Positions 1 to 39,425 of a stretch of DNA of 41,378 bases are shown one piece after another. A program made the position numbers and the translations under genes. Location of the stretch: assembly GCA_965205945.1 (NCBI GenBank), contig CBDBIB010000005.1, positions 1 through 41,378 of the forward strand, in the 5' to 3' direction. The notes under the pieces are model-generated. The model ran no database searches. It worked only from the letters and a program-made list of their open reading frames with translations, and was not told where the DNA came from. Every line of letters begins with the position of its first letter. The first letter of the stretch is position 1. The DNA comes from Bdellovibrionales bacterium (lineage in GTDB: Bacteria; Bdellovibrionota; Bdellovibrionia; Bdellovibrionales; UBA1609).

Positions 1-3000
1 TTATCTATTGGTAAATTAAACATTGTATTATTTGTTGTAGGATTTCCATTTATATCTACAGAACTTACAATTACTTTATTTAAATCACTAGTTTCTCGTC
101 CTAGTGCAAAATATAGTGTTACATCTTCAAACCCTGGAGTTAAGCAAGTATATTTTTGTAAATTTGGATCTAATGATGTATTCATAAATGTTATAACTTC
201 TCCTGCCTCATTACAATTCACATTTAATATTGTACTTAATCCATTTTTATAAGTTTGATCCGTCAGTATTGGCGCTGTAATTATTGGCGTTTGATCGTTC
301 ACAGGACTTGGATTTGCGTTAACAATATTTATACCTTGGGTTACACTTATAGATAGTAAATTGGATCCCACCCCACTGACATCAATACTCCCATTAAACT
401 CTCCTGATGAATTACATAAGAACTCTTTATTTACTGTTGAAGGTACTGTTACTGTAACAACTCCTAAGCCCTTATCACAGACTCCACTTATAAAGTAAGA
501 ATTTGCATTTTGAGTATTAACTGTTACTAAAGGGTCATTAAAACCTAAAGCTCCTGCCATGTTTACTATAAGATTGCTAGATTTAAGAACTGCATCCCCA
601 GTATTGCCAACATCATCTATTACAGAATAGGCTGGTACAGTTAACGTTAGCTGACCTGCTAAGGAAATAATCTCTGTAGTTATATTACAAGGGTTCATTG
701 TACAAGTGCTTGGATTTAAAGTTCCTGAACTTATAGTTGGAGTATAGTTTAAGCCTGTAATATTATCGTCTGTAACAGTGATTGTAAAACTTGCTGTTTG
801 CCCTTCAATGATATCTCCTCCATTTGAAATTAAGATTGTTGGAGCTAAAGTATCAATTGCAACATCCACACTTGTTGTACTCTGAGAAGGATTTTCGTAT
901 TCATCTATTGAGCTAATTGTTAAGTTGTTTGGAGAACTAAAACTAACTCCCTGTTCAATGTTTAATTCAAAGTTCTCTAATCCACTTCCAGCACAAATAT
1001 GTGTTTGTGGATCTGGGTCAATACCATTTCCTGTGATACTTACAATTTCTTGTGCTTCATTACAATTTATTGCAAGGTTATATGAAGTTCCTCCTATAAC
1101 AACTCCTGGAGCTGTTGCAATTGGAGCTGACACTGGACCGTTTTGATCATTTATCGGATTAGGTAAAAAACTTTTGTTATTTCCATTTTGTAATGCTGTT
1201 ACACTCATTGGATTTTCTGTTACGCCACTAATATTTAAAAAAGCATTATAAGAACCGTTTACACAATTTACTGTAGAAGACTCATTAGGCGTTCCAACTG
1301 TTACGACTACATCACCTTGACCAGTATCACAATTACCACTTACTGGATATAATAAAGCGTTAAGACTTGTACCTACTGGAGCACTTGTAATTGATAATGT
1401 TGTAGCCATGACATTTAAACTGTCACTTTCTGCTTCTAAATTTGAATTTCCAAGAGCGTCTACCACCGCACCTACTGCTACAGTTAAAGTTAATTCTCCT
1501 ACACTGGCTCCTGTTACAGTTACTGTACATGGACTTAGAGAACAAGCACCTGAGCTTATTGTTCCTGAACTAGATGTAGGTGTAAATCCTAAAAAACTAC
1601 TTTCATCATTTACTGTAACTGTAAATACGGCATCATCTCCTTCAATAATATCTCCTCCATTTGAAATTAAGATTGTTGGAGCTAAAGTATCAATTGCAAC
1701 ATCCACACTTGTTGTACTCTGAGAAGGATTTTCGTATTCATCTGTTGAACTAATTGTTAAGTTGTTTGGAGAACTAAAACTAACTCCCTGTTTAATGTTT
1801 AATTCAAAGTTCTCTAATCCACTTCCAGCACAAATATGTGTTTGTGGATCTGGGTCAATACCATTTCCTGTGATACTTACAATTTCTTGTGCTTCATTAC
1901 AATTTATTGCAAGGTTATATGAAGTTCCTCCTATAACAACTCCTGGAGCTGTTGCAATTGGAGCTGACACTGGACCGTTTTGATCATTTATCGGATTAGG
2001 TAAAAAACTTTTGTTATTTCCATTTTGTAATGCTGTTACACTCATTGGATTTTCTGTTACTCCACTAATATTTAAAAAAGCATTATAAGAACCGTTTACA
2101 CAATTTACTGTAGAAGACTCATTAGGCGCTCCAACTGTTACGACTACATCACCTTGACCAGTATCACAATTACCACTTACTGGATATAATAAAGCGTTAA
2201 GACTTGTACCTACTGGAGCACTTGTAATTGATAATGTTGTAGCCATGACATTTAAACTGTCACTTTCTGCTTCTAAATTTGAATTTCCAAGAGCGTCTAC
2301 CACCGCACCTACTGCTACAGTTAAAGTTAATTCTCCTACACTGGCTCCTGTTACAGTTACTGTACATGGACTTAGAGAACAAGCACCTGAGCTTATTGTT
2401 CCTGAACTAGATGTAGGTGTAAATCCTAAAAAACTACTTTCATCATTTACTGTAACTGTAAATACGGCATCATCTCCTTCAATAATATCTCCTCCATTTG
2501 AAATTAAGATTGTTGGAGCTAAAGTATCAATTGCAACATCCACACTTGTTGTACTCTGAGAAGGATTTTCGTATTCATCTGTTGAACTAATTGTTAAGTT
2601 GTTTGGAGAACTAAAACTAACTCCCTGTTCAATGTTTAATTCAAAGTTCTCTAATCCACTTCCAGCACAAATATGTGTTTGTGGATCTGGATCAATACCA
2701 TTTCCTGTGATACTTACAATTTCTTGTGCTTCATTACAATTTATTACAAGGTTATATGAAGTTCCTCCTATAACAACTCCTGGAGCTGTTGCAATTGGAG
2801 CTGACACTGGACCGTTTTGATCATTTATCGGATTAGGTAAAAAACTTTTGTTATTTCCATTTTGTAATGCTGTTACACTCATTGGATTTTCTGTTACGCC
2901 ACTAATATTTAAAAAAGCATTATAAGAACCGTTTACACAATTTACTGTAGAAGACTCATTAGGCGCTCCAACTGTTACGACTACATCACCTTGACCAGTA

Positions 3001-4052
3001 TCACAATTACCACTTACTGGATATAATAAAGCGTTAAGACTTGTACCTACTGGAGCGCTTGTAATTGATAATGTTGTAGCCATGACATTTAAACTGTCGC
3101 TTTCTGCTTCTAAATTTGAATTTCCACCAGCATCTACCACCGCACCTACTGCTACAGTTAAAGTTAATTCTCCTACACTGGCTCCTGTTACAGTTACTGT
3201 ACATGGACTTAGAGAACAAGCACCTGAGCTTATTGTTCCTGAACTAGATGTAGGTGTAAATCCTAAAAAACTACTTTCATCATTTACTGTAACTGTAAAT
3301 ACGGCATCATCTCCTTCAATGATATCTCCTCCATTTGAAATTAAAATTGTTGGAGCTAAAGTATCAATTGCAACATCCACACTTGTTGTACTCTGAGAAG
3401 GATTTTCGTATTCATCTGTTGAACTAATTGTTAAGTTATTTGGAGAACTAAAACTAACTCCCTGTTCAATGTTTAATTCAAAGTTCTCTAATCCACTTCC
3501 AGCACAAATATGTGTTTGTGGATCTGGGTCAATACCATTTCCTTTAATACTTACAATTTCTTGTGCTTCATTACAATTTATTGCAAGGTTATATGAAGTT
3601 CCTCCTATAACAACTCCTGGAGCTGTTGCAATTGGAGCTGACACTGGACCGTTTTGATCATTTACTGGAACTGGGTTAGCTGAGACTGTTAATTTTCCTT
3701 GAGTCACTGAAGTACTTGGGGGATTCAAAGTTACACGACTTACATTTATTGTACCTGAGAAATTTCCCTTTAAATCACATTGAAAAAACTTGGTGACATT
3801 AGGAGAACCTATAACAACTTTTACAACTCCAGCTGTGGGATCACATATACCACTTAAAGGATAAGCCTGGGAGTTTTCAGATGTAATACTGGGCAGTGGA
3901 GAGTTAAAAGAAAGATCAGTGGAACTATTTTTATCATCACCAAAATTAATACTAACTGTAGAGTTCTTTTTACTTGTAAAAAGATTTCCATCACAACCGC
4001 TTAAACTCAATACAATAAATCCTGCTATTAATACATTTAATAATAGTTTCAT
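1..4052 (-). CDS. Giant repetitive surface lipoprotein (Cys-paired Ig-like domains), 3' end outside the window
   Basis: Manual translation from ATG at 4052 (RBS AAGGA upstream) gives MKLLLNVLIAGFIVLSLSG-C, a signal peptide with lipobox LSGC. No stop was met in the stretches translated, and the frame at the edge (...NPTTNNTMFNLPID) agrees with the start frame. It is absent from the ORF track, presumably because it has no stop in the window. Homologous to 9942..12497. Confidence 0.92.
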   Translation of the reverse strand, partial: MKLLLNVLIAGFIVLSLSGCDGNLFTSKKNSTVSINFGDDKNSSTDLSFNSPLPSITSENSQAYPLSGICDPTAGVVKVVIGSPNVTKFFQCDLKGNFSGTINVSRVTLNPPSTSVTQGKLTVSANPVPVNDQNGPVSAPIATAPGVVIGGTSYNLAINCNEAQEIVSIKGNGIDPDPQTHICAGSGLENFELNIEQGVSFSSPNNLTISSTDEYENPSQSTTSVDVAIDTLAPTILISNGGDIIEGDDAVFTVTVNDESSFLGFTPTSSSGTISSGACSLSPCTVTVTGASVGELTLTVAVGAVVDAGGNSNLEAESDSLNVMATTLSITSAPVGTSLNALLYPVSGNCDTGQGDVVVTVGAPNESSTVNCVNGSYNAFLNISGVTENPMSVTALQNGNNKSFLPNPINDQNGPVSAPIATAPGVVIGGTSYNLVINCNEAQEIVSITGNGIDPDPQTHICAGSGLENFELNIEQGVSFSSPNNLTISSTDEYENPSQSTTSVDVAIDTLAPTILISNGGDIIEGDDAVFTVTVNDESSFLGFTPTSSSGTISSGACSLSPCTVTVTGASVGELTLTVAVGAVVDALGNSNLEAESDSLNVMATTLSITSAPVGTSLNALLYPVSGNCDTGQGDVVVTVGAPNESSTVNCVNGSYNAFLNISGVTENPMSVTALQNGNNKSFLPNPINDQNGPVSAPIATAPGVVIGGTSYNLAINCNEAQEIVSITGNGIDPDPQTHICAGSGLENFELNIKQGVSFSSPNNLTISSTDEYENPSQSTTSVDVAIDTLAPTILISNGGDIIEGDDAVFTVTVNDESSFLGFTPTSSSGTISSGACSLSPCTVTVTGASVGELTLTVAVGAVVDALGNSNLEAESDSLNVMATTLSITSAPVGTSLNALLYPVSGNCDTGQGDVVVTVGTPNESSTVNCVNGSYNAFLNISGVTENPMSVTALQNGNNKSFLPNPINDQNGPVSAPIATAPGVVIGGTSYNLAINCNEAQEIVSITGNGIDPDPQTHICAGSGLENFELNIEQGVSFSSPNNLTISSIDEYENPSQSTTSVDVAIDTLAPTILISNGGDIIEGQTASFTITVTDDNITGLNYTPTISSGTLNPSTCTMNPCNITTEIISLAGQLTLTVPAYSVIDDVGNTGDAVLKSSNLIVNMAGALGFNDPLVTVNTQNANSYFISGVCDKGLGVVTVTVPSTVNKEFLCNSSGEFNGSIDVSGVGSNLLSISVTQGINIVNANPSPVNDQTPIITAPILTDQTYKNGLSTILNVNCNEAGEVITFMNTSLDPNLQKYTCLTPGFEDVTLYFALGRETSDLNKVIVSSVDINGNPTTNNTMFNLPID
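802..3664. repeat. Intragenic tandem repeat, 837-bp (279-aa) unit, about 3.4 copies
   Basis: Identical landmarks recur at 811/1648/2485/3322 and 925/1762/2599. Only a handful of substitutions per unit are visible by eye. Confidence 0.97.
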
Positions 4053-7274: not shown

Positions 7275-7817
7275 ATGAATACAGACATTAAAATTAATAC
7301 ATCTGAAATTTGGCCTCAAGAAAGAGACTTTATTATTAGACCAGATCGACTTAAATACGCTAGACGCTTAAAAAATCAAGATTTTTGTGTGTTTTGTAAA
7401 AGCAGTGAAGCCTTAGAAACTGACTTTTCTTTAGACAATCTCATGGTCTATAAAACTAAACATTCACAAATTTTACTTAACAAGTATCCATATAATACAG
7501 GTCATGTAATTGTCGCCCCGCTTAAACATGGTGGGTCTATGTTTGAACTCTTAGAAGAAGTGTACATAGATTTAATGAAAACGATTAGATTTGCCGGAGA
7601 GGTTTTAATAAAAACGTATGATGTTAAAGGTTTAAATATTGGTGTAAACCATGGAAAAGTTGCAGGTGCTGGAATTCCAGAACATTTACATTGGCATGTG
7701 ATTCCAAGGTGGTATGGAGATACCAATTTTTTTCCAATCATTTGTGAAACAAAGGTTTTTCCAGAGACATTAGAACAAACTTGGCATAAGATAATGACTG
7801 CTATTAAGAAAAAGTAA
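7275..7817 (+). CDS. HIT-family nucleotide hydrolase
   Basis: CVFC, LNKYPYNTGH and the histidine triad HLHWH followed by VIPRW. Confidence 0.92.
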   Translation: MNTDIKINTSEIWPQERDFIIRPDRLKYARRLKNQDFCVFCKSSEALETDFSLDNLMVYKTKHSQILLNKYPYNTGHVIVAPLKHGGSMFELLEEVYIDLMKTIRFAGEVLIKTYDVKGLNIGVNHGKVAGAGIPEHLHWHVIPRWYGDTNFFPIICETKVFPETLEQTWHKIMTAIKKK

Positions 7818-7831
7818 GTAGAGGCTAAGTT

Positions 7832-8590
7832 TTGAGATCAAATAATTATTATGTACAAATGACTGTTACTATTACTCCAATGGTGAAAGCTTTGTTAATA
7901 GCTAATACTGTTATTTGGTTTCTAGCAGTAATTGTTGCTCAAGGATTTATTTTTAAAAACAACATAGTCTTTGATGTTTTTGGACTTTCAGCAGGTGGTG
8001 TGTTAGAGAGCTTTAAACTTTGGCAACCTATAACATATATATTCTTACATTCAACAGGAATTTGGCATATACTTTTTAACTGTTTAATTATTTGGTTTAT
8101 TGGTTCTGAACTTGAAAAAATTTGGGGCCAAAAAGAATTTTTAAAATATTATCTCACATGTGGAATTGGAGCAGGAATTCTTTATGTGGTTATTATAAAC
8201 CTTGCAGTGAATCTTTTTAGTTTAAATCCAGGCTTTATGAAGGTTCCTACAATTGGAGCATCCGGAGCTGTTTTCGGTCTTTTAGTAGCTTATGGAGTTA
8301 TTTTTGGTGAACGTATAATTTTCTTCATGATGCTATTTCCCATGAAAGCAAAATATTTTATTCTACTTCTAGGTATTGTTGAGGTTTTCACATTAATCAC
8401 TTCTGGATTTGGAGGGGCTGTAAATAATACTGCTCATTTAGGCGGGTTTATTGTAGGGTTTCTTTATATTTATTTAAGTAGACACATAAATAACAAAAGA
8501 CAAAAACGTTGGCTTAAAAAACCAGAACAACGGCTAAAGCTTATCGTTGATAATGAGATTAAAAAAGAAGACAAGCCGACATTTCATTAA
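7832..8590 (+). CDS. Rhomboid-family intramembrane serine protease
   Basis: WQPITYIFLH, HILFN, GASGA (catalytic Ser) and AHLGG (catalytic His); hydrophobic segments. Confidence 0.94.
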   Translation: MRSNNYYVQMTVTITPMVKALLIANTVIWFLAVIVAQGFIFKNNIVFDVFGLSAGGVLESFKLWQPITYIFLHSTGIWHILFNCLIIWFIGSELEKIWGQKEFLKYYLTCGIGAGILYVVIINLAVNLFSLNPGFMKVPTIGASGAVFGLLVAYGVIFGERIIFFMMLFPMKAKYFILLLGIVEVFTLITSGFGGAVNNTAHLGGFIVGFLYIYLSRHINNKRQKRWLKKPEQRLKLIVDNEIKKEDKPTFH

Positions 8591-8730
8591 AAACACTGTT
8601 AAAATAATAAAAACTAGGAACCCTCTGCTCTAAAATAGATTAAAAGAAGACACTACTTTTTTGAATCTTAGAATTTTTAAATTTGTCAGGTATATATATT
8701 TAAACGTAAGCGATCTAAAACTCACCCCTC

Positions 8731-9091
8731 CTGAATGTCTCTTGTAGTCATTCCTCTAGAGTATAAAACTAAAATATTTTTCTTAAAAACCTTCCATCCG
8801 AATTTTACCTTTAGAAACAATTTGTGGCTCAAAGCTAGCCTCTCTCTCACGGGGAGTCTTGAGTTCAATCTCACCTTTTTCACCCTTAATCGTTTTTTTA
8901 CTAAAACCGTTTTTGGTGTTAGCTTTTCTGAATTCAGATTTAGTATTTTTAGAATACCCTAAATGATCATTTAACTCTGTATTTAGAGCAGATTCTAAGA
9001 CAACTTTCATAAGTTGACCTATAATATCTGATAAATCTTTTTGTGTTTTTACGTTCTTGGCAAGTTCTTTGCCTATTTCTTCTATGTTCAT
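8731..9091 (-). pseudogene. IS256-family transposase 5' fragment
   Basis: ALNTELNDHLGY, NGFSKKTIK, ELKTPREREASFEPQIV. After a frameshift near 8785 it continues KNILVLYSRGMTTRDIQE and is then cut off at the IS66 end. Confidence 0.9.
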
Positions 9092-9203
9092 TCTGCTTAC
9101 TCCTTAGGATGCTTAATTCTAATGCTAGTGGGGCTAAAAACGAAGACGAGCATGCAATTGGAAGAGAAAAGATTTTATTTTATTATAAACTTAACATCCA
9201 ACA

Positions 9204-9708
9204 TAGACCTCCCCAAAAATACTGGACACTTTTCTAAGCGCGAACTAAACCTAAAAGGAGAGGTAAAAAGGCATGAAGAAAAAGAAGAAAGAGGCTACAG
9301 AGTCTAAAAAAAGTACAATACTTTTTCAGAAGAATTTAAAGAAGAAGCTGTTGAATTGGCAAAGAGAGTTGGAAACAGCCAGGCATCAAGAGATCTAGGG
9401 ACTACTGAAACCAGCATTAGAAATTGGAGAAAAAAGCTAAATCCAACTCCTAAAAGCTTATTAAAAGAGGAAAATAAGAAGTCATATAGAGAGCTTGAGA
9501 AAGAAAATAAGCGTTTAAAAAAAGAATTTTTATATAGAAAAAGCTATACTGGAGAAAGAGAATTAAGATCGTTAGTATTTGAATATATTGAAGTTTGGTA
9601 AAACAAGAAAAGAAGGCATTCTTCTCTTGATTATCAAAGCCCTAAAGGGTATGCAATTAAACAGAACCTCGCATAGGAAAAAGTGTCCTATTTCTTTGGG
9701 GAAGTCCA
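9204..9708 (+). mobile_element. Internally deleted IS3-family element (505 bp)
   Basis: Imperfect IRs TAGACCTCCCCAAAAATACTGGACACTTTT (9204) and TGGACTTCCCCAAAGAAATAGGACACTTTT (reverse complement, ending 9708). A frameshifted OrfA HTH (FSEEFKEEAVEL...IRNWRKK...ELEKENKRLKKE) is fused to the OrfB C-terminus (VFEYIEVW*NKKRRHSSLDYQSP). No target duplication. Confidence 0.88.
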
Positions 9709-9709
9709 C

Positions 9710-9815
9710 TCGGCACTAACGGCGTACTGTTTGCGTCCAACAAAACCCTCTATTAGACTTGAAATACTTGAAGAAAGGCTGCTTCAGTAGGTTTAAAAAG
9801 TTCGAGCTCGGGTTA
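9710..9815 (+). mobile_element. IS982-family right-end remnant
   Basis: Translates SALTAYCLRPTKPSIRLEILEERLLQ*, like the IS982 transposase C-terminus (AYCxxPKKPS), followed by an end-like TCGAGCTCGGGTTA. Family assigned from recalled motifs. Confidence 0.6.
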
Positions 9816-9941
9816 TTCAGTCAGTATAGGAAAATATTTTATAAATTTTAATAAACTTTTGATTTTATAAAAAACTTTGATAATATTCTTTTTTTTAGCC
9901 AAACTATATTTAATTCATCTTTTATAAAGCTAAGTAAAAAA

Positions 9942-12497
9942 CTAATTAGTACTCGGGTGATAAACACAACGAAACCCTACATTAATACCTTCAACTAAGG
10001 GGTTAGCAAACGATACATAAAATACCCCACAATGAAGGTCAGCATGGCTTGTACTGCAACCACGAAGTATTCCCTCAAAAGAAGAAGATCTTGTGAAAAA
10101 CCCCTGCCCTAAACCACTAAACCTATTAAGGTGTCCATAATCTTTATCAGGGCCAAACTGATCTTTAGCCACCCTTGGTGTTGTGGTCGTTCCTCCACTA
10201 AGGCTTAGTTCATTAGGATTTGACTCCCTTGTTAATTTATATATGCTAACTGTGGTATTGCCATAAGAACCTTCTTTATCATCTTTTACCCATTCAGAAA
10301 CATTACCAGAAATATCCCAAACCACTTCTCCATTAGACAATGCATGTATTCTTTTATTTAAATCCCAAAAGCTATCACAATCTACCACTGCACCATGGCA
10401 ACCCTCATTATCATTCTCACTAGCCTCGACAGGGTCATTCGCCAACGCCTGGCTAAAACCCAAGCTTAAAGCAGCTATTCCCGAAAGCACACTCCAATTA
10501 GAATCCACAGATTCAATATTTCTTGCTATGGTTTGCCACTCATCGTTAGTCATAAGGTCATAGCCTTCGCCTATGCCCTGACATTTAGTAATAGCATCAC
10601 CACGAGTAATCCCCCCAACAGGCAGCCCACTGGCTTTAGACACAGCATTATCAGAATCATCATACTTTGCTTCATATTTCATTACACAAAAATCACTACT
10701 GGTATACCCAGCTAGTGCTGGAACAGGTACATAATTTTCTGGACAAGAAGTGTTTGTATCTCTAACTATTAAACTACTGCTTACAGCTAATGTATTGCCA
10801 TTACCAGCATTATCTACTACATCACCTATGCCTACTGTTAAGGTCAGTCTTCCTACACTTGCTCCTGTTACAGTTACATCACAAAATTCAAAGCATTCAC
10901 TCGAGCTCACCACTCCTGAACTTGGTGTAGGGGTAAAAGACTCAATTCGGTTTGTATCAGCAACTCTTATTCTAAATAAAGCTTCTCCACCAACTACACT
11001 ATTTGTACCTGCTAAAATCGTTATTCTTGGTGCTAAATTATCTATTGGTAAGTTAAATTCAGTGTCATTTGTTGTTGGGTTTTCATTTTCATCTATAGAA
11101 CTTACTGTAACAGTATTAGTGCCTACAATTTCTACTCCTTCTATAAAAGTTAATCCTACATTTTCAGGCCCCACAGTCGTACATGTGTGATGCTGTGGAT
11201 TTGGACTTAACCCTTTATTTCTAAAGGTCACTACTTCGTTAATCTCATTACATGGCACTGAAATCATAAAATTTAAACCATTAGTTAAATCTTGATCCTC
11301 TACCTCTGGCGCTCTTGCTATTGGACTTTGATCATTCACAGGCCCTGGACTTGCATCAATAGTGTTTCCACTTTGAATTATACTCACTGGCAATGGGTTT
11401 AAACTCACACCACTTACATCAAGTACACCACTAAATTCTCCTGGAGCATTACATGAAACACTTTTACTTACTGATGGGTTTACTCTAATTGTAACGTTTC
11501 CTGAGCCCTCTGCACAAGCCCCACTTACAGTGTAGGAACCTGCGTTCTCACTGTTGACCCTTTGAAGAGAGGCAAACCTTAAAGTTCCTGCCTCCTCTAC
11601 CATAAGACTGCTAGACTTTAGAACACTGTCTCCTCTGTTGCCAATTGCATCCTCTATAGAGTTGGCCTCTACAGTTAAGGTGAGCACACCTGATGAGGAA
11701 ATCTCTTCTGTTATTATCTCACATGGATTCTCAGAACAAGGATAAGGAGTTGAATCAACACCACTTGCGCTTACACTGTAGTTAAATTCTGAAATATTAA
11801 TGTCAGTAACTGTAATTGTAAAACTTGCTCTTTGCCCTTGAATTATGGTCCCTTCATTTAAAATCTCAACTCTTGGACCTTTATTATCAATTAAAAAACT
11901 TATAGTTTCTTCTCCACTTGATGGGTTCTTATACTTATCAGTTGATAAAATTCTTAAATTATTTGGATTAGTGGTTTCAACAAAACTTTCTAGACTTAAT
12001 CTAAAGTCTTCTTCTCCACTACTAGTGCAAGTATGTGTTTGTGTACTGGGATTAAGACCAGATCCACTAATGCTTACAATTTCTTGAGCTTCGTTACACA
12101 AAATAGGCAAATTATAAAAACTGCCTCTAACATAGGTACTTGGAGGAGTTGCTCTTGGAGCGCTTATTGGGCCTATTTGATCATTTATTGGTGGAGTAGA
12201 TGGTTTAGCAGTTTTTCCATCTTGTTCTACTAAAACCGTCATAGGGTTTGAGACTATGAGACTCACATCTAGAGTGGTTAAATATTTACCACCCGTACAA
12301 GCCACTGATTTAACAATATTAGGTGCTCCAATTGTAATTTTAACGTTTCCAGAGGAACCAGCACAGTTTCCACTTACTTTATAAGAGGAGGCATTGCTTT
12401 GTGAAGCAAAGGAAAGATCATTGACGCTTAAACTGCTTTTATCACCGCCACAACTAGTAAAAACCATCAACACACATAAAATAAACAAAGTTTTCAT
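9942..12497 (-). CDS. Surface lipoprotein with six Ig-like domains and a C-terminal FGE-sulfatase (C-type-lectin-fold)-like domain
   Basis: Lipobox FTSC and RBS AAGGAG. Two divergent three-domain units, then CPENYVPVP...FCVMKYEAK...LMTNDEWQ...DISGNVSEWV...LRG...VGFRC. Confidence 0.9.
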   Translation of the reverse strand: MKTLFILCVLMVFTSCGGDKSSLSVNDLSFASQSNASSYKVSGNCAGSSGNVKITIGAPNIVKSVACTGGKYLTTLDVSLIVSNPMTVLVEQDGKTAKPSTPPINDQIGPISAPRATPPSTYVRGSFYNLPILCNEAQEIVSISGSGLNPSTQTHTCTSSGEEDFRLSLESFVETTNPNNLRILSTDKYKNPSSGEETISFLIDNKGPRVEILNEGTIIQGQRASFTITVTDINISEFNYSVSASGVDSTPYPCSENPCEIITEEISSSGVLTLTVEANSIEDAIGNRGDSVLKSSSLMVEEAGTLRFASLQRVNSENAGSYTVSGACAEGSGNVTIRVNPSVSKSVSCNAPGEFSGVLDVSGVSLNPLPVSIIQSGNTIDASPGPVNDQSPIARAPEVEDQDLTNGLNFMISVPCNEINEVVTFRNKGLSPNPQHHTCTTVGPENVGLTFIEGVEIVGTNTVTVSSIDENENPTTNDTEFNLPIDNLAPRITILAGTNSVVGGEALFRIRVADTNRIESFTPTPSSGVVSSSECFEFCDVTVTGASVGRLTLTVGIGDVVDNAGNGNTLAVSSSLIVRDTNTSCPENYVPVPALAGYTSSDFCVMKYEAKYDDSDNAVSKASGLPVGGITRGDAITKCQGIGEGYDLMTNDEWQTIARNIESVDSNWSVLSGIAALSLGFSQALANDPVEASENDNEGCHGAVVDCDSFWDLNKRIHALSNGEVVWDISGNVSEWVKDDKEGSYGNTTVSIYKLTRESNPNELSLSGGTTTTPRVAKDQFGPDKDYGHLNRFSGLGQGFFTRSSSFEGILRGCSTSHADLHCGVFYVSFANPLVEGINVGFRCVYHPSTN

Positions 12498-12810
12498 TAT
12501 TTTACTCCTTAATAAGTAATTCTATTACATCGTTAGTTTTTTTTATATGCTGTAGTCTAAATTTGAACTTTTTTCCATTTTTCTTAACTTCCTTTTTTTA
12601 GACTTAGTTCTTATTTAGAAAAGTGTTCAGCCTTCTTGATGGAGGCTCATAAGTTTAGTCTTCGGGCTTGTACAATATTATATAGAGTGTCGTGTTTATC
12701 TTACAAAAGACTAGAATCATTTTTTATTTATATAAAACTTTAGTATTGAAAAAGTTTAAATCCTAGCTACTCAGTCTTCATTTTTTTATATTTCTTAAGA
12801 CTTAATCTAA

Positions 12811-12860
12811 AAGCTTTTTAAGCTATTGGTTTAGGTTGAGGACTCATGTGCAACAACGCC
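12811..12860 (+). mobile_element. IS5-family (IS903-group-like) terminal remnant
   Basis: Read on minus it starts GGCGTTGTTGCACA, like IS903-group GGCTTTGTTG ends. 41/50 identical to the reverse complement of 39333-39382. Confidence 0.6.
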
Positions 12861-12868
12861 TTTTTAAT

Positions 12869-13087
12869 TCATTTGTTTTTATTGCAACAGGTTTTGCTCT
12901 TAGTGTTTTTCTTTTTAGTTTTATAAAGTTCAGGGTAGAATTTTTTCTTATATCCATGGAGCGTTGAATCTTTAATGTTGTTTTCAAAACAGTATTTGAC
13001 GATGCTAGCTTTAGCATTTAGAGCGTTATCAACATGATTTTTCCAAAACTCAAAGCATTGTTTTTTATCTAAAATTGTTTTATTCAT
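12869..13087 (-). pseudogene. IS66 accessory protein TnpA-like HTH, truncated
   Basis: FWKNHV...SIVKYCFENNIKDSTLHGYKKK pattern, RBS GGAGG, first ORF inside a GTAAG end; tnpB and tnpC are absent. Confidence 0.7.
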
Positions 13088-13157
13088 CGTTTAAACCTCC
13101 CATTCTTCAAAGCTTTTAACAAAATTAAATTCTAACTTCTATGAGGTGAGTTTTAGA

Positions 13158-14068
13158 CTGACTTTTACCCACAAATAGGTCTAGGTTTTATAATTTTAAA
13201 ATCAAAATAATATTAAACTCCAAATTGATTTTAAGAATTGGAGTTTTTGTGAATATTAAAAATGAATTTAAAAATGCTCAACTTGGTGATAAACGACTTA
13301 ACCACAGACTTGAATACCTTGCTAAGGCTTTGAGTAAAAATAATGGTGAGTCTATCTCTTTTTCATGCCAAGATTGGAAACCTTCTAAGGCGGCTTATAG
13401 ATTCTTTGATAATGATAACTTTCAGGCTAAAGAAATTCTCAAACCTCACATAAAACAAACGCTCAACAGAATGAATGCTCTAGATGAAAATGATATGTCT
13501 TTAATTTTACATGACTTAAGTGAAATAACTTTCTTAAAAAATAAAGTCTTTCAAGGCAACGCAGGATACTTAGGGTCCTACATAGATCATCAAAATGGTA
13601 AAGAGTACGATACACCAGGTTTAATGATACATTCATCTCTTGCTCTATCAGTATAAACTTCGTTGGAATATAGAAATGTATTTTAAGACGTTAAAATCAG
13701 GTTTTAGTGTAGAGAAAAGTCGTTTAAGGAGTTTAGAGAGGATCAAAAAGTATGTAGCGTTTACGAGTGTTTTAGCTTGGCGAATATTTTGGATTTCAAA
13801 GATTTCTAGAGTTGATTGCGAAGTAAATGCAGATCACTGTTTTACAAAAGAGGAACAAGTTTTGTTATCAAAATTAGAAGAGCAGTCAGGCAGGTTATTA
13901 GGAGCAAATGATAGCTTGGCAAAATTTGTAAAATCGTTTGCAAGACTAGGAGGTTATTTAGCAAGGAACTCTGACCCACCTCCAGGCCAACAAGTTCTGT
14001 GGAGGGCGATGATAAAATTTAATGATATTAAAACAGATAATAACTTATGATTTGTGGGTAAAAGTCAG
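13158..14068 (+). mobile_element. Internally deleted IS4-family (IS50/Tn5-like) element, 911 bp
   Basis: Perfect 19-bp IRs CTGACTTTTACCCACAAAT (13158-13176 and 14050-14068), similar to the IS50 outside end CTGACTCTTATACACAAGT. 9-bp duplication AGTTTTAGA/TGTTTTAGA. The transposase N-terminus (LGDKRLNHRL, KAAYRFFDN) is joined out of frame to the C-terminus (YKLRWNIEMYFKTLKSG, ARLGGYLARNSDPPPGQQVLWR). Confidence 0.95.
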
Positions 14069-14281
14069 TGTTTTAGACCACTTACATTTAAACTCTAAGA
14101 GAGTCTTTAAAAAATAGCATCAAAGTCAGGAGGATATCTATTGGCCCCTCTCATCTTTAAGTATTAAGGTTTTCTTGTAGTCACATTTTCCAGTACCTTT
14201 TAGTAAGTACTTATAGTATTATAACATAGGAAAAAAAATAAAATATATAAACGGTTTTTAAAACAAGAATTAAAGTACAGC

Positions 14282-14608
14282 TTAAAAAAGTATAACTCCA
14301 GTAATCATATCTTCATTCAAAGGCTTTTGAGTCTTTTCATTTAAATTTATCATTAAAACATTTTCAGCATTTTTACTTACTTTTGAAAGCCTTAAAGGGC
14401 TATTTAAATTTGGATAAGAAAAAATCACACGATCCCCCTCTTTAGCTTCTTTTAACAGAACAAGAACATATGATGATTTACCAGTATCAATAATTTCAAT
14501 CACTCGAAAAAATGAAAGCCAAACCCAAAGACCTAATAAAAGTCCTATAAAAGCCATATAAAACTCTCTTTTAAAAAAGATTTTTTGTTTTCTAGAAAGC
14601 AAGACCAT
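14282..14608 (-). CDS. Hypothetical membrane protein
   Basis: 108-aa ORF with one hydrophobic segment, overlapping the end of the second lepB; no recognised motif. Confidence 0.55.
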   Translation of the reverse strand: MVLLSRKQKIFFKREFYMAFIGLLLGLWVWLSFFRVIEIIDTGKSSYVLVLLKEAKEGDRVIFSYPNLNSPLRLSKVSKNAENVLMINLNEKTQKPLNEDMITGVILF

Positions 14609-15374
14609 TACCCAATCTGTTTATTCTAAGACTTAAAATATTACAACCTGCATTCAGAACTATTTTTTTTTGACAACTTAAAGCTATAAATCTAGCTCTG
14701 CCAACAAGCCTCTCTTTAGCAACATACCCAAATCTTCTTCCATCATAAGAGTTTTTTCGATTATCTCCCATAACAAACATCTGCCCATAAGGAACTTTAA
14801 AAGTTTCTATATTTTTTAAAAAATCTGCTTCTGACAGCACGGCTGGAGACTTAGCATTAAGGTAAGTTAAAATAATATGTGAGTCTTGCTCCTTAATTCC
14901 TGGAAAAATTTCTCGAAAAGCTGTAAATTCCCCTTCCTCTCTTCCCATAGATTTAGCCAGTTCCAATTTCTCATCTCCAATAATTTTTTTATGACTTACC
15001 CTTTCATTATTTATAGAAACAATAAAATCTTTAATAACCTCAAGTTTGTCTCCTGAAAGTCCAACAAGCCTTTTAACTAAATACTTAGAATCATCAGGGT
15101 CTTTAAAAACTATTATAGCCCTCCTATGTGAAGGTTTAGGACCATACACCCAAGACTGCGTAAAGGGAACTCTGAAACCAAAATCAATTTTTGAGACAAT
15201 AATATAATCATTTACAAAAAGCTTAGGATACATGCTTCCTGAAGGAATCAAAAAAACTTCAAAGACAACCCACCTTATTAAAAGAATCATTAAAATAAGA
15301 TTTATAAAACTTAATGATCCTTTTAAAAGACCTGGTCTTTTCTTCTTTTTTCCTAATAACTCACTCTTTAACAT
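14592..15374 (-). CDS. lepB: Signal peptidase I (second copy)
   Basis: IPSGSMYPKL, LVKRLVGL, MGDNRKNSYDGR. Confidence 0.92.
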   Translation of the reverse strand: MLKSELLGKKKKRPGLLKGSLSFINLILMILLIRWVVFEVFLIPSGSMYPKLFVNDYIIVSKIDFGFRVPFTQSWVYGPKPSHRRAIIVFKDPDDSKYLVKRLVGLSGDKLEVIKDFIVSINNERVSHKKIIGDEKLELAKSMGREEGEFTAFREIFPGIKEQDSHIILTYLNAKSPAVLSEADFLKNIETFKVPYGQMFVMGDNRKNSYDGRRFGYVAKERLVGRARFIALSCQKKIVLNAGCNILSLRINRLGNGLAF

Positions 15375-39313: not shown

Positions 39314-39332
39314 GTTCTTAACAAAAAAAAAT

Positions 39333-39425
39333 GGCGTTGTTGCGCATAAACACTCAACCTAAACCAACAACTTAGAAATCTTCATCCACCCAATTTGCTA
39401 ACATGCCAAGGATGGTTAAAGTAGG
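39333..39425 (-). mobile_element. IS5-family (IS903-group-like) right-end remnant
   Basis: End GGCGTTGTTGCGCATAA. The minus strand encodes LTILGMLANWVDEDF*, like the T-LGMP C-terminus of IS903-group transposases. Matches 12811-12860. Confidence 0.6.

Follow-up and report, generated by a model that had tools for sequence, protein, structure and literature searches.

The window analyzed here, a stretch of 41,378 bp, is the whole of contig C5 of genome G000 (Bdellovibrionales bacterium; 1.87 Mb, 32% G+C, five contigs). The homologs of its proteins group it with Bdellovibrio-like bacteria. Between two convergent housekeeping operons of this contig lies an element of 5.38 kb that is bounded by the ends of an insertion sequence (IS) of the IS66 family and that encloses an intact gene for a putative lipoprotein of 851 aa. 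The element is the relic of an IS66-family member, nonautonomous and not working, and both its ends arrived by one transposition event. The lipoprotein gene, according to the history that we favor with some reserve, would be a late import: the IS66 insertion would have come first, it would have become a dead shell with IS debris, and the lipoprotein segment would then have been imported and trimmed. The shell was also invaded by a Tn5-like IS, a type of element that in these genomes is repeatedly found inside the ends of IS66.

The IS66 Relic and Its Interior

The left end (GTAAGCGATCTAAAACTCACC) runs from 8706 on the plus strand and the right end (GTAAGTGGTCTAAAAC) runs inward from 14085 on the minus strand. 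A degenerate 16-nt pattern of these ends matches twice in the window, where shuffles predict 0.08. The right end is interrupted by the nested Tn5-like IS, and once this IS and one copy of its duplication are removed the end reads GTAAGTGGTCTAAAACTCACC, which agrees with the left end at 19 of 21 positions. The octamer ATTTAAAC adjoins both tips exactly, at 8698-8705 on the left and at 14086-14093 on the right. It is AT-rich and occurs 15 times in the window on both strands together (8.3 expected), a frequency from which the chance of a match at the required position is ~2 in 10,000. Because the ends are so similar and the octamer is exact at both tips, a single transposition event accounts for the two. 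On the plus strand the neighbors are a gene of the HIT family and a gene for a rhomboid protein, and the minus strand has ORF108 (without family match), two signal-peptidase genes (lepB, lepB), and lepA.

On the left, ~52 bp of IS66 sequence remain before an IS256 fragment begins (8706-8757, plus strand; the tnpC-distal side, or right inverted repeat, IRR), and ~32 nt of these are similar to other IS66-type ends of G000. On the right stands what is, in the orientation of IS66, its left inverted repeat (IRL), in two pieces separated by the Tn5-like IS: the outer 17 nt (14069-14085, minus strand), and the inner part with the tnpA leader (13088-13157, minus strand). The final 9 bp of the inner piece are one copy of the duplication of the Tn5-like IS, and its first 31 nt are common to a solo end at C3 475492-475522. 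The tnpA remnant (12869-13087, minus strand), recognized by profile and similarity searches, codes for 72 aa, the relatives having 97-110 aa, and its open reading frame (ORF) begins 78 nt inside the restored end. The remnant has a match to the NCBIfam model of the IS66 TnpA (NF047593; E 9.9e-5 and 22.8 bits, where the cut-off is 28), to the 97-aa tnpA of a relic on contig C3 that has tnpB fragments next to it (53% over 38 aa, E 1e-11), and to the intact tnpA of genome G014 (E 3e-4). A six-frame Pfam search of the whole genome gives no match on contig C5 to tnpB (PF05717) or to the DDE transposase tnpC (PF03050). Elsewhere in G000 these models find only fragments and one single-gene element with different ends, and such searches reveal no intact tnpABC in the genome. 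No active IS66 of the window subtype was found in G000 or in G003, the closest genome searched, which belongs to the same genus and is called the sister genome hereafter. The IS66 sequence surviving in the window element amounts to ~0.4 kb.

Termini in GTAAGCG are a trait of the IS66 family, and the intact elements of two more distant relatives, G027 (locus L020) and G014 (locus L021), indeed start with GTAAGCG and have tnpA ~50-70 nt inside, followed by tnpB and tnpC. Target duplications of 8 bp are reported for IS66 elements (PMC6778807), and Table 2 of PMC3281130 lists two captured Paracoccus members of 2.7-2.8 kb with 8-bp repeats. These results bear out much of a sequence-only reading of the locus, which had noted the inverted GTAAG ends at 8706 and 14085 with 19/21 identity and an 8-bp repeat, the tnpA-like stub without tnpB and tnpC, and the family hallmarks (GTAA ends, tnpA first, 8-bp duplication). 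The same reading had taken the whole 5.38 kb for one insertion between convergent operons, and the ends, the octamer, and the opposed strands of the rhomboid side (+) and the ORF108-lepB-lepB-lepA side (-) agree with it.

Contig C3 holds a second IS66 relic (C3 535572-544978; locus L067 4573-13979), in which the left end is likewise split by a Tn5-like IS and is followed by the 97-aa tnpA and the tnpB fragments. This relic stands upstream of a paralog of the lipoprotein gene coding for 2080 aa (C3 538317-544535) and in the same orientation.

The interior of the window element was resolved by BLAST against its own genome, repeat searches, and profile searches, and it is a mosaic. From the left, the IS66 end gives way to an IS256-family fragment (8758-9121, minus strand) with the N-terminal 102 aa of a Mutator-type transposase (PF00872, E 3.2e-15) and part of the 5′ leader. 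Both of its sides are truncated; other IS256 copies extend 41 nt beyond the equivalent of 9121, and G000 has no full copy. Next come the tail of an IS5-like transposase fragment (9122-9204, plus strand; assigned to IS5 by eye from a translated motif), which is 86% identical to L019 6338-6416 and opens the segment shared with the sister genome, and an IS3-family miniature (9205-9709, plus strand) that keeps both ends as an inverted repeat, has an internal deletion, and is 95-98% identical to full 1.3-kb copies (Pfam HTH_Tnp_1 and rve_2). The miniature adjoins the interior of a right-end fragment of an IS982-like IS (9710-9815, plus strand; 93% to positions 924-1030 of the 1035-bp copy at C2 261456-262489), hence an adjacent deletion occurred there too. 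On the other side of the lipoprotein gene there is a second IS3-like stub of 76 bp (12575-12650, minus strand), consisting of the left end and first codons only, whose terminus at 12650 points away from the gene and whose break is toward the gene; it pairs as an inverted repeat (77% over 43 nt) with the left end of the IS3 miniature at 9214-9256. It is followed by a decayed IS982-like left-end fragment (12698-12770, minus strand; a 56-nt match of 77% identity, E 7.6e-7, with the IS982-like copy at its positions 23-78, the outer limit being set by eye). The sequence-only picture of the interior, made of the tnpA stub, the lipoprotein gene, and an IS4 insertion, holds for these three components and had overlooked the fragments of IS256, IS5, IS3 (two), and IS982 (two).

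BLAST against the genome also finds a short noncoding repeat of ~50 nt in the element (12810-12865), which recurs at window positions 39328-39382 and at C3 282269-282318. The copies are 82-84% identical, and all are noncoding.

Probable Late Arrival of the Lipoprotein Gene

The segment that bears the gene spans 9122-12574 (3.4 kb). Its left edge is a breakpoint inside the doubly truncated IS256 fragment and its right edge, where homology with G003 stops (12574), is a breakpoint in the IS3-like stub; neither is IS66 sequence. The sister genome matches the window at 9122-9205 (86%) and at 9813-12574 (94%), and it does so at another locus, L019, which lies between a gene for a TPR protein and a murA-like gene. 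The main part of the shared segment (9813-12574, minus strand) consists of the lipoprotein gene with short flanks and is 94.3% identical (158 differences in 2762 positions), the 138 noncoding nt downstream of the gene being 97.8% identical. Locus L019 is an insertion of 5 kb with a longer IS5-like fragment, the lipoprotein gene, an IS982-like copy of full length, and the terminus of an IS66 that is of another subtype, after which a C-terminal relic of tnpC can be recognized by eye in the translation. No further homology with the G003 locus was found for window positions 12498-13160 or 8706-9210. The site between the TPR and murA genes is empty in G000 (~400 bp between the genes) and in genome G001 (~520 bp). 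The segment was therefore inserted at two different housekeeping junctions in sister genomes.

The divergence of the gene differs from that of its surroundings. By the Nei-Gojobori method, the comparison of G000 with G003 gives a synonymous divergence (dS) of 0.097 for the lipoprotein gene (858 codons; ratio of nonsynonymous to synonymous divergence, dN/dS, 0.50), against 0.27-0.75 for 17 pairs of housekeeping ORFs from four flanking regions, these pairs being uncurated, taken from stop to stop, and freed of the spurious short antisense ORFs present in the same lists. At the nucleotide level the operons flanking the window element are 87-89% identical in G003. Because of this contrast in dS, the sequences indicate that the lipoprotein gene moved between the lineages recently. 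The 2080-aa paralog has an even lower dS (0.034, dN/dS 0.97); it lies in a 6.5-kb block that is 97% identical to two G003 loci, and the flanks of the block are 83-84% identical and map elsewhere. Repeats of the IS982 type bracket this paralog, and no duplication was found around them. The genome comparison indicates that lipoprotein genes travel with mobile DNA, and this broader idea of the sequence-only reading is upheld by the low dS and by G003 copies at different IS-laden loci. Two sequencing runs of one sample (X1 and X2) yield contigs identical to the window at depth 3-4 together with contigs at depth ~20 that have the G003 letter at 29 of the 29 listed variant positions, so that G000-type and G003-type lineages appear to co-occur in that sample. 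The ISs of the two genomes share 98-99.5% identity, which offers portable homology for recombination.

These data can be arranged into the following scheme. An IS66 element first inserted between the rhomboid gene and ORF108-lepB-lepB-lepA and duplicated ATTTAAAC, a step that is established. The element then died, its two termini, a leader of ~70 bp, and a shortened tnpA remaining. Other ISs landed in the dead shell, and deletions next to them removed tnpB and tnpC, as the anatomy of the element demonstrates. The Tn5-like IS split the left IS66 end 17 nt from its tip, and because of this split the element is immobile today. The 3.4-kb segment with the lipoprotein gene would have entered after the decay of the shell, already bearing IS5 and IS982 scraps, either by recombination through near-identical IS copies common with a co-resident sister lineage or as an IS-flanked composite transposing in. 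Later deletions may have trimmed its junctions.

Two routes had been considered for the gene in the sequence-only reading, namely arrival as the passenger of a nonautonomous or composite IS66 transposon and later placement into a resident IS66. The evidence leans to the second, given that the segment edges lie at IS256 and IS3 breakpoints and that the G003 copy is outside IS66 ends. Import after the landing of IS66 is favored because the edges and junctions of the segment have the marks of repeated insertion and deletion in a neutral site, and we consider it somewhat better than an even bet. Four points weigh against it. Since every edge was later trimmed, no junction preserves the entry event, and the order of events is one that we infer rather than see. 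In the three loci out of three examined (window, C3 535572-544535, and G003 L019), the lipoprotein gene is preceded by an IS66 relic that has its orientation, and this fits an IS66-linked mobilization as well. Among the 30 relatives searched, none has the site empty or occupied by a plain IS66. Finally, the dS contrast comes from one pair of genomes, with uncurated stop-to-stop ORFs on the housekeeping side. The most serious competitor is that the IS66 ends, the lipoprotein gene, and the debris transposed together as a nonautonomous or extended IS66 transposon, with the transposase acting in trans. The three upstream relics count in its favor, as do the single perfect 8-bp duplication that brackets all 5.38 kb and the G003 ortholog, since an IS66 terminus with a tnpC relic identified by eye lies ~150 bp from it once an inserted IS982-like copy is disregarded. 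However, that terminus is of a different subtype (GTAAGCGAGCTAAAGC...) and its tip faces the gene, which is consequently outside that element. Moreover, the tnpA/tnpB relic is not linked to the 2080-aa paralog in G003, the G003 ortholog stands outside any pair of IS66 ends, G000 has no other end pair with a duplication, neither genome has yielded an active IS66 of the required subtype, and the edges of the segment are breakpoints in IS256 and IS3. We judge joint transposition unlikely, though it keeps a real share of the probability.

Two other explanations deny the unity of the element and are far less probable. If two separate IS66 insertions flanked resident DNA, the octamers would match by chance, for which one may invoke the AT-richness of ATTTAAAC, its 15 occurrences against 8.3 expected, and the fact that the rhomboid and lepB sides are adjacent in no relative searched. 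Yet an exact octamer at both required positions has the ~2 in 10,000 chance given above, and the ends are of the same subtype, inverted, and with tnpA just inside one of them, which makes this coincidence scarcely believable. The arrangement might also be an assembly chimera produced by collapsed repeats, since multicopy ISs crowd the region and the contig is short (41 kb). Against this, contigs of X1 and X2 that match the window exactly extend across 12327-12796 and 12774-13186, although these runs may be the source data and so are not independent, and the junctions at 8757/8758, 9121/9122, and 12574/12575 are unique and single-copy on at least one side; we give an artifact very little credit. 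The late import of the segment into a dead IS66 shell is accordingly the reading retained here.

The search for the ancestral state of the locus used the whole locus as query. The rhomboid and lepB sides are adjacent in none of the 30 relatives; they are 21 kb apart and inverted in G003, which has no GTAAG end or ATTTAAAC beside its rhomboid gene, and they are on different contigs in G001, G002, and G004. The contigs of three runs over 7600-15200 show no joint that skips 8706-14085. The empty site with a single ATTTAAAC, which the sequence-only reading had proposed to look for, was thus encountered neither among the relatives nor in the run contigs. That reading had also suggested that IS66 could be a general vehicle of the lipoprotein family and that other end pairs might enclose paralogs. 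This proposal fails in G000: a pattern search and BLAST for decayed ends bring to light neither a second IS66 end pair with a duplication nor a pair enclosing a paralog, and intact tnpABC copies are missing too. A scan of metagenomes with the 21-nt end pattern gave two matches, about the number that chance would give in a collection of that size, and both were discarded as chance matches. They lie inside an rsmH-like gene of an unrelated metagenome organism (loci L100 and L101, position 2001-2021), after an mraZ-like ORF, both genes being named by eye.

The lipoprotein gene itself (9942-12497, minus strand) is an open frame, in agreement with the sequence-only reading, which had described an intact gene between the ends, and it looks functional. 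The encoded protein has a putative signal peptide and lipobox (its N-terminus ends in ...LMVFTSCGG, where FTSC is lipobox-like as read by eye), two rounds of Ig-like repeats, and an FGE-sulfatase-like domain at the C-terminus, and it is probably a surface lipoprotein. Its match to PF03781 (FGE-sulfatase) reaches 22.4 bits, the gathering cut-off being 23.3. For the C-terminal 292 aa, 309 homologs were found; PF03781 is annotated in many of them, and those with a named source are from Bdellovibrio or its relatives; the family has probably expanded in Bdellovibrio-like predators. A sequence search of the PDB with the C-terminal 291 aa gave 0 matches at E up to 1. A promoter scan of 9700-12900 found 13 sites, against 9.7 expected, the best being a 10/12 match at 12706-12677 (minus strand), and it is not counted as evidence. 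The nearby paralog signaled by the sequence-only reading does exist (3-4052, minus strand). It codes for at least 1350 aa, has near-identical tandem repeats of 279 aa (a period of 837 bp in the DNA), and runs off the start of the contig. The first 9 kb of contig C2 are full of repeats matching this gene, and C5 and C2 may join through it.

Tn5-Like Insertions in IS66 Ends

The nested IS (13158-14068, plus strand; 911 bp, with 19-bp CTGACT... ends) matches the Pfam families Tnp_DNA_bind (PF14706), DDE_Tnp_1 (PF01609), and Dimer_Tnp_Tn5 (PF02281) and has an internal deletion of ~587 bp at 13648/13651. Its perfect 20-nt inverted ends are at 13157-13176 and 14050-14069, and it is flanked by the 9-bp duplication AGTTTTAGA/TGTTTTAGA, splitting the right-hand IS66 end 17 nt from the tip. 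It is 98-99% identical to six copies of 1.5-2.0 kb, five of which are 1494-1495 bp long. By sequence it is assigned to the IS50/Tn5 group of the IS4 family, and we take its terminus to resemble the outside end of Tn5.

All seven copies of G000 occupy IS66-type ends (window 13149-14085; C1 266247-267775; C3 168762-170290, 298011-300000, 475492-477034, 535572-537106, and 581039-582550). Conversely, the genome has 10 sites matching GTAAGYGNNCTAAA, and nine of them adjoin a Tn5-like end, the exception being the left end of the window element; BLAST adds two more ends of IS66 that are decayed and uninterrupted. The 14 ends of the seven copies adjoin the outer half of an IS66 end in nine cases and the inner half in four, one being unclear. 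Perfect 9-bp duplications (9/9) that rebuild the IS66 end are present at two of the seven copies and an 8/9 match at two more. Two copies have outer GTAAG halves on both sides and no duplication around them, and they are read as recombinants.

A similar distribution is found in two other genomes. In G003 (loci L037-L066), GTAAGYG lies 15-19 nt outside 14 of the 30 distinct ends examined (34 matches), and most of the others, 11 by reading, adjoin the inner half. The ends include a second type of IS66 end (GTAAGCGCTTCATCAGCC), and one insertion lies outside any IS66 end and still has GTAAGCC 17 nt outside. In the metagenome-assembled genome (MAG) JACKAN01 of a Bdellovibrionaceae (loci L077, L081, L082, L092, and L096), three of five ends adjoin GTAAGCGC plus 10 nt, and one pair with a duplication is inside a third type of IS66 end. 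Most IS66 ends of these three Bdellovibrionales genomes (G000, G003, and JACKAN01) appear to be interrupted by the Tn5-like IS. The pattern suggests that this IS is probably a dedicated hunter of IS66 termini, whose insertions would duplicate 9 bp at positions 9-17 (or 18) of the end, whichever way the IS is oriented, and would occur in at least three end sequences. The only constant feature of the targeted ends is the GTAAGC tip, which is presumably what the IS recognizes. In seven other organisms that have the 19-nt end, none of eight flanked ends is beside GTAAG.

The copies themselves are degraded. All seven copies of G000 have common frameshifts and stops, with a longest ORF of 103 aa in the five full-length copies, whereas it reaches 124 and 215 aa in the remaining copies. 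Despite the common frameshift and in-frame stops, the full-length copies are 98-99% identical, and their spread seems to postdate the inactivation, presumably through a transposase supplied in trans. Most copies in G003 are deletion derivatives of 1.1-1.2 kb, and there is a 1491-bp variant with an ORF of 384 aa. At G003 C11 472315-472361 (locus L059), two Tn5-like copies stand head to tail around a 9-bp spacer, GGTTTTAAG, that is the duplication found at the neighboring IS66 end.

Significance and Comparison with Known Systems

The window element is an ordinary product of IS decay, and the idea of an IS66 cargo transposon is not to be carried forward as it was stated. What the comparison with G003 does show is that the expanded genes for surface lipoproteins in these predator-like bacteria belong to an exchanged mobile gene pool and not to the core genome: they are at different IS-laden sites in sister genomes, and their dS is five to fifteen times below that of neighboring core genes. 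Such exchange bears on how these bacteria vary their surfaces. If the hunting of IS66 ends is real, it would account for every IS66 here being dead, with the shell and its captured lipoprotein gene frozen in place, and it would provide a simple natural system in which to study the aiming of a Tn5-type transposase at a specific DNA site.

The relic shares with IS66, IS679, ISPpa5a, and ISPpa7 the GTAAGCG ends, the 8-bp target duplication, and tnpA as the first gene inside the left end. It differs from these members of the family by the absence of tnpB and tnpC, by keeping ~0.4 of roughly 2.7 kb, by a left end split by another IS, and by its foreign interior. The encoded protein resembles the surface proteins of Bdellovibrionota that have the FGE-sulfatase domain (PF03781), as many of its C-terminal homologs are annotated with this domain and there are several paralogs per genome. 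In contrast to them, it scores just under the Pfam cut-off, and no solved structure matches it by sequence. The locus also recalls nested IS clusters and composite or passenger transposons, in which a gene without a role in transposition is found between transposon ends, among ISs, and at different loci in related genomes. Here, however, the gene segment has no intact flanking IS pair or matching duplication, the internal junctions are all deletion breakpoints, and the mobility of the segment is known by genome comparison and not by structure.

The closest parallel to the Tn5-like IS is with IS4321/IS5075, cited in PMC11187229 as inserting in the ends of Tn21-family transposons. A search of the literature, covering titles and the starts of abstracts, found no paper dealing with the targeting of IS66 ends by a Tn5-like IS, which is not proof that the matter is unpublished. 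Both kinds of element enter the terminal repeats of a different transposon family, at one set position and in both orientations. In IS4321/IS5075 the enzyme is a DEDD, RNA-guided one and the prey is Tn21, whereas the element described here has a Tn5-type DDE transposase, makes a 9-bp duplication, preys on an IS family, and is known from its sequence alone. If its preference for IS66 ends is confirmed, it would be the DDE-transposase counterpart of IS4321/IS5075.

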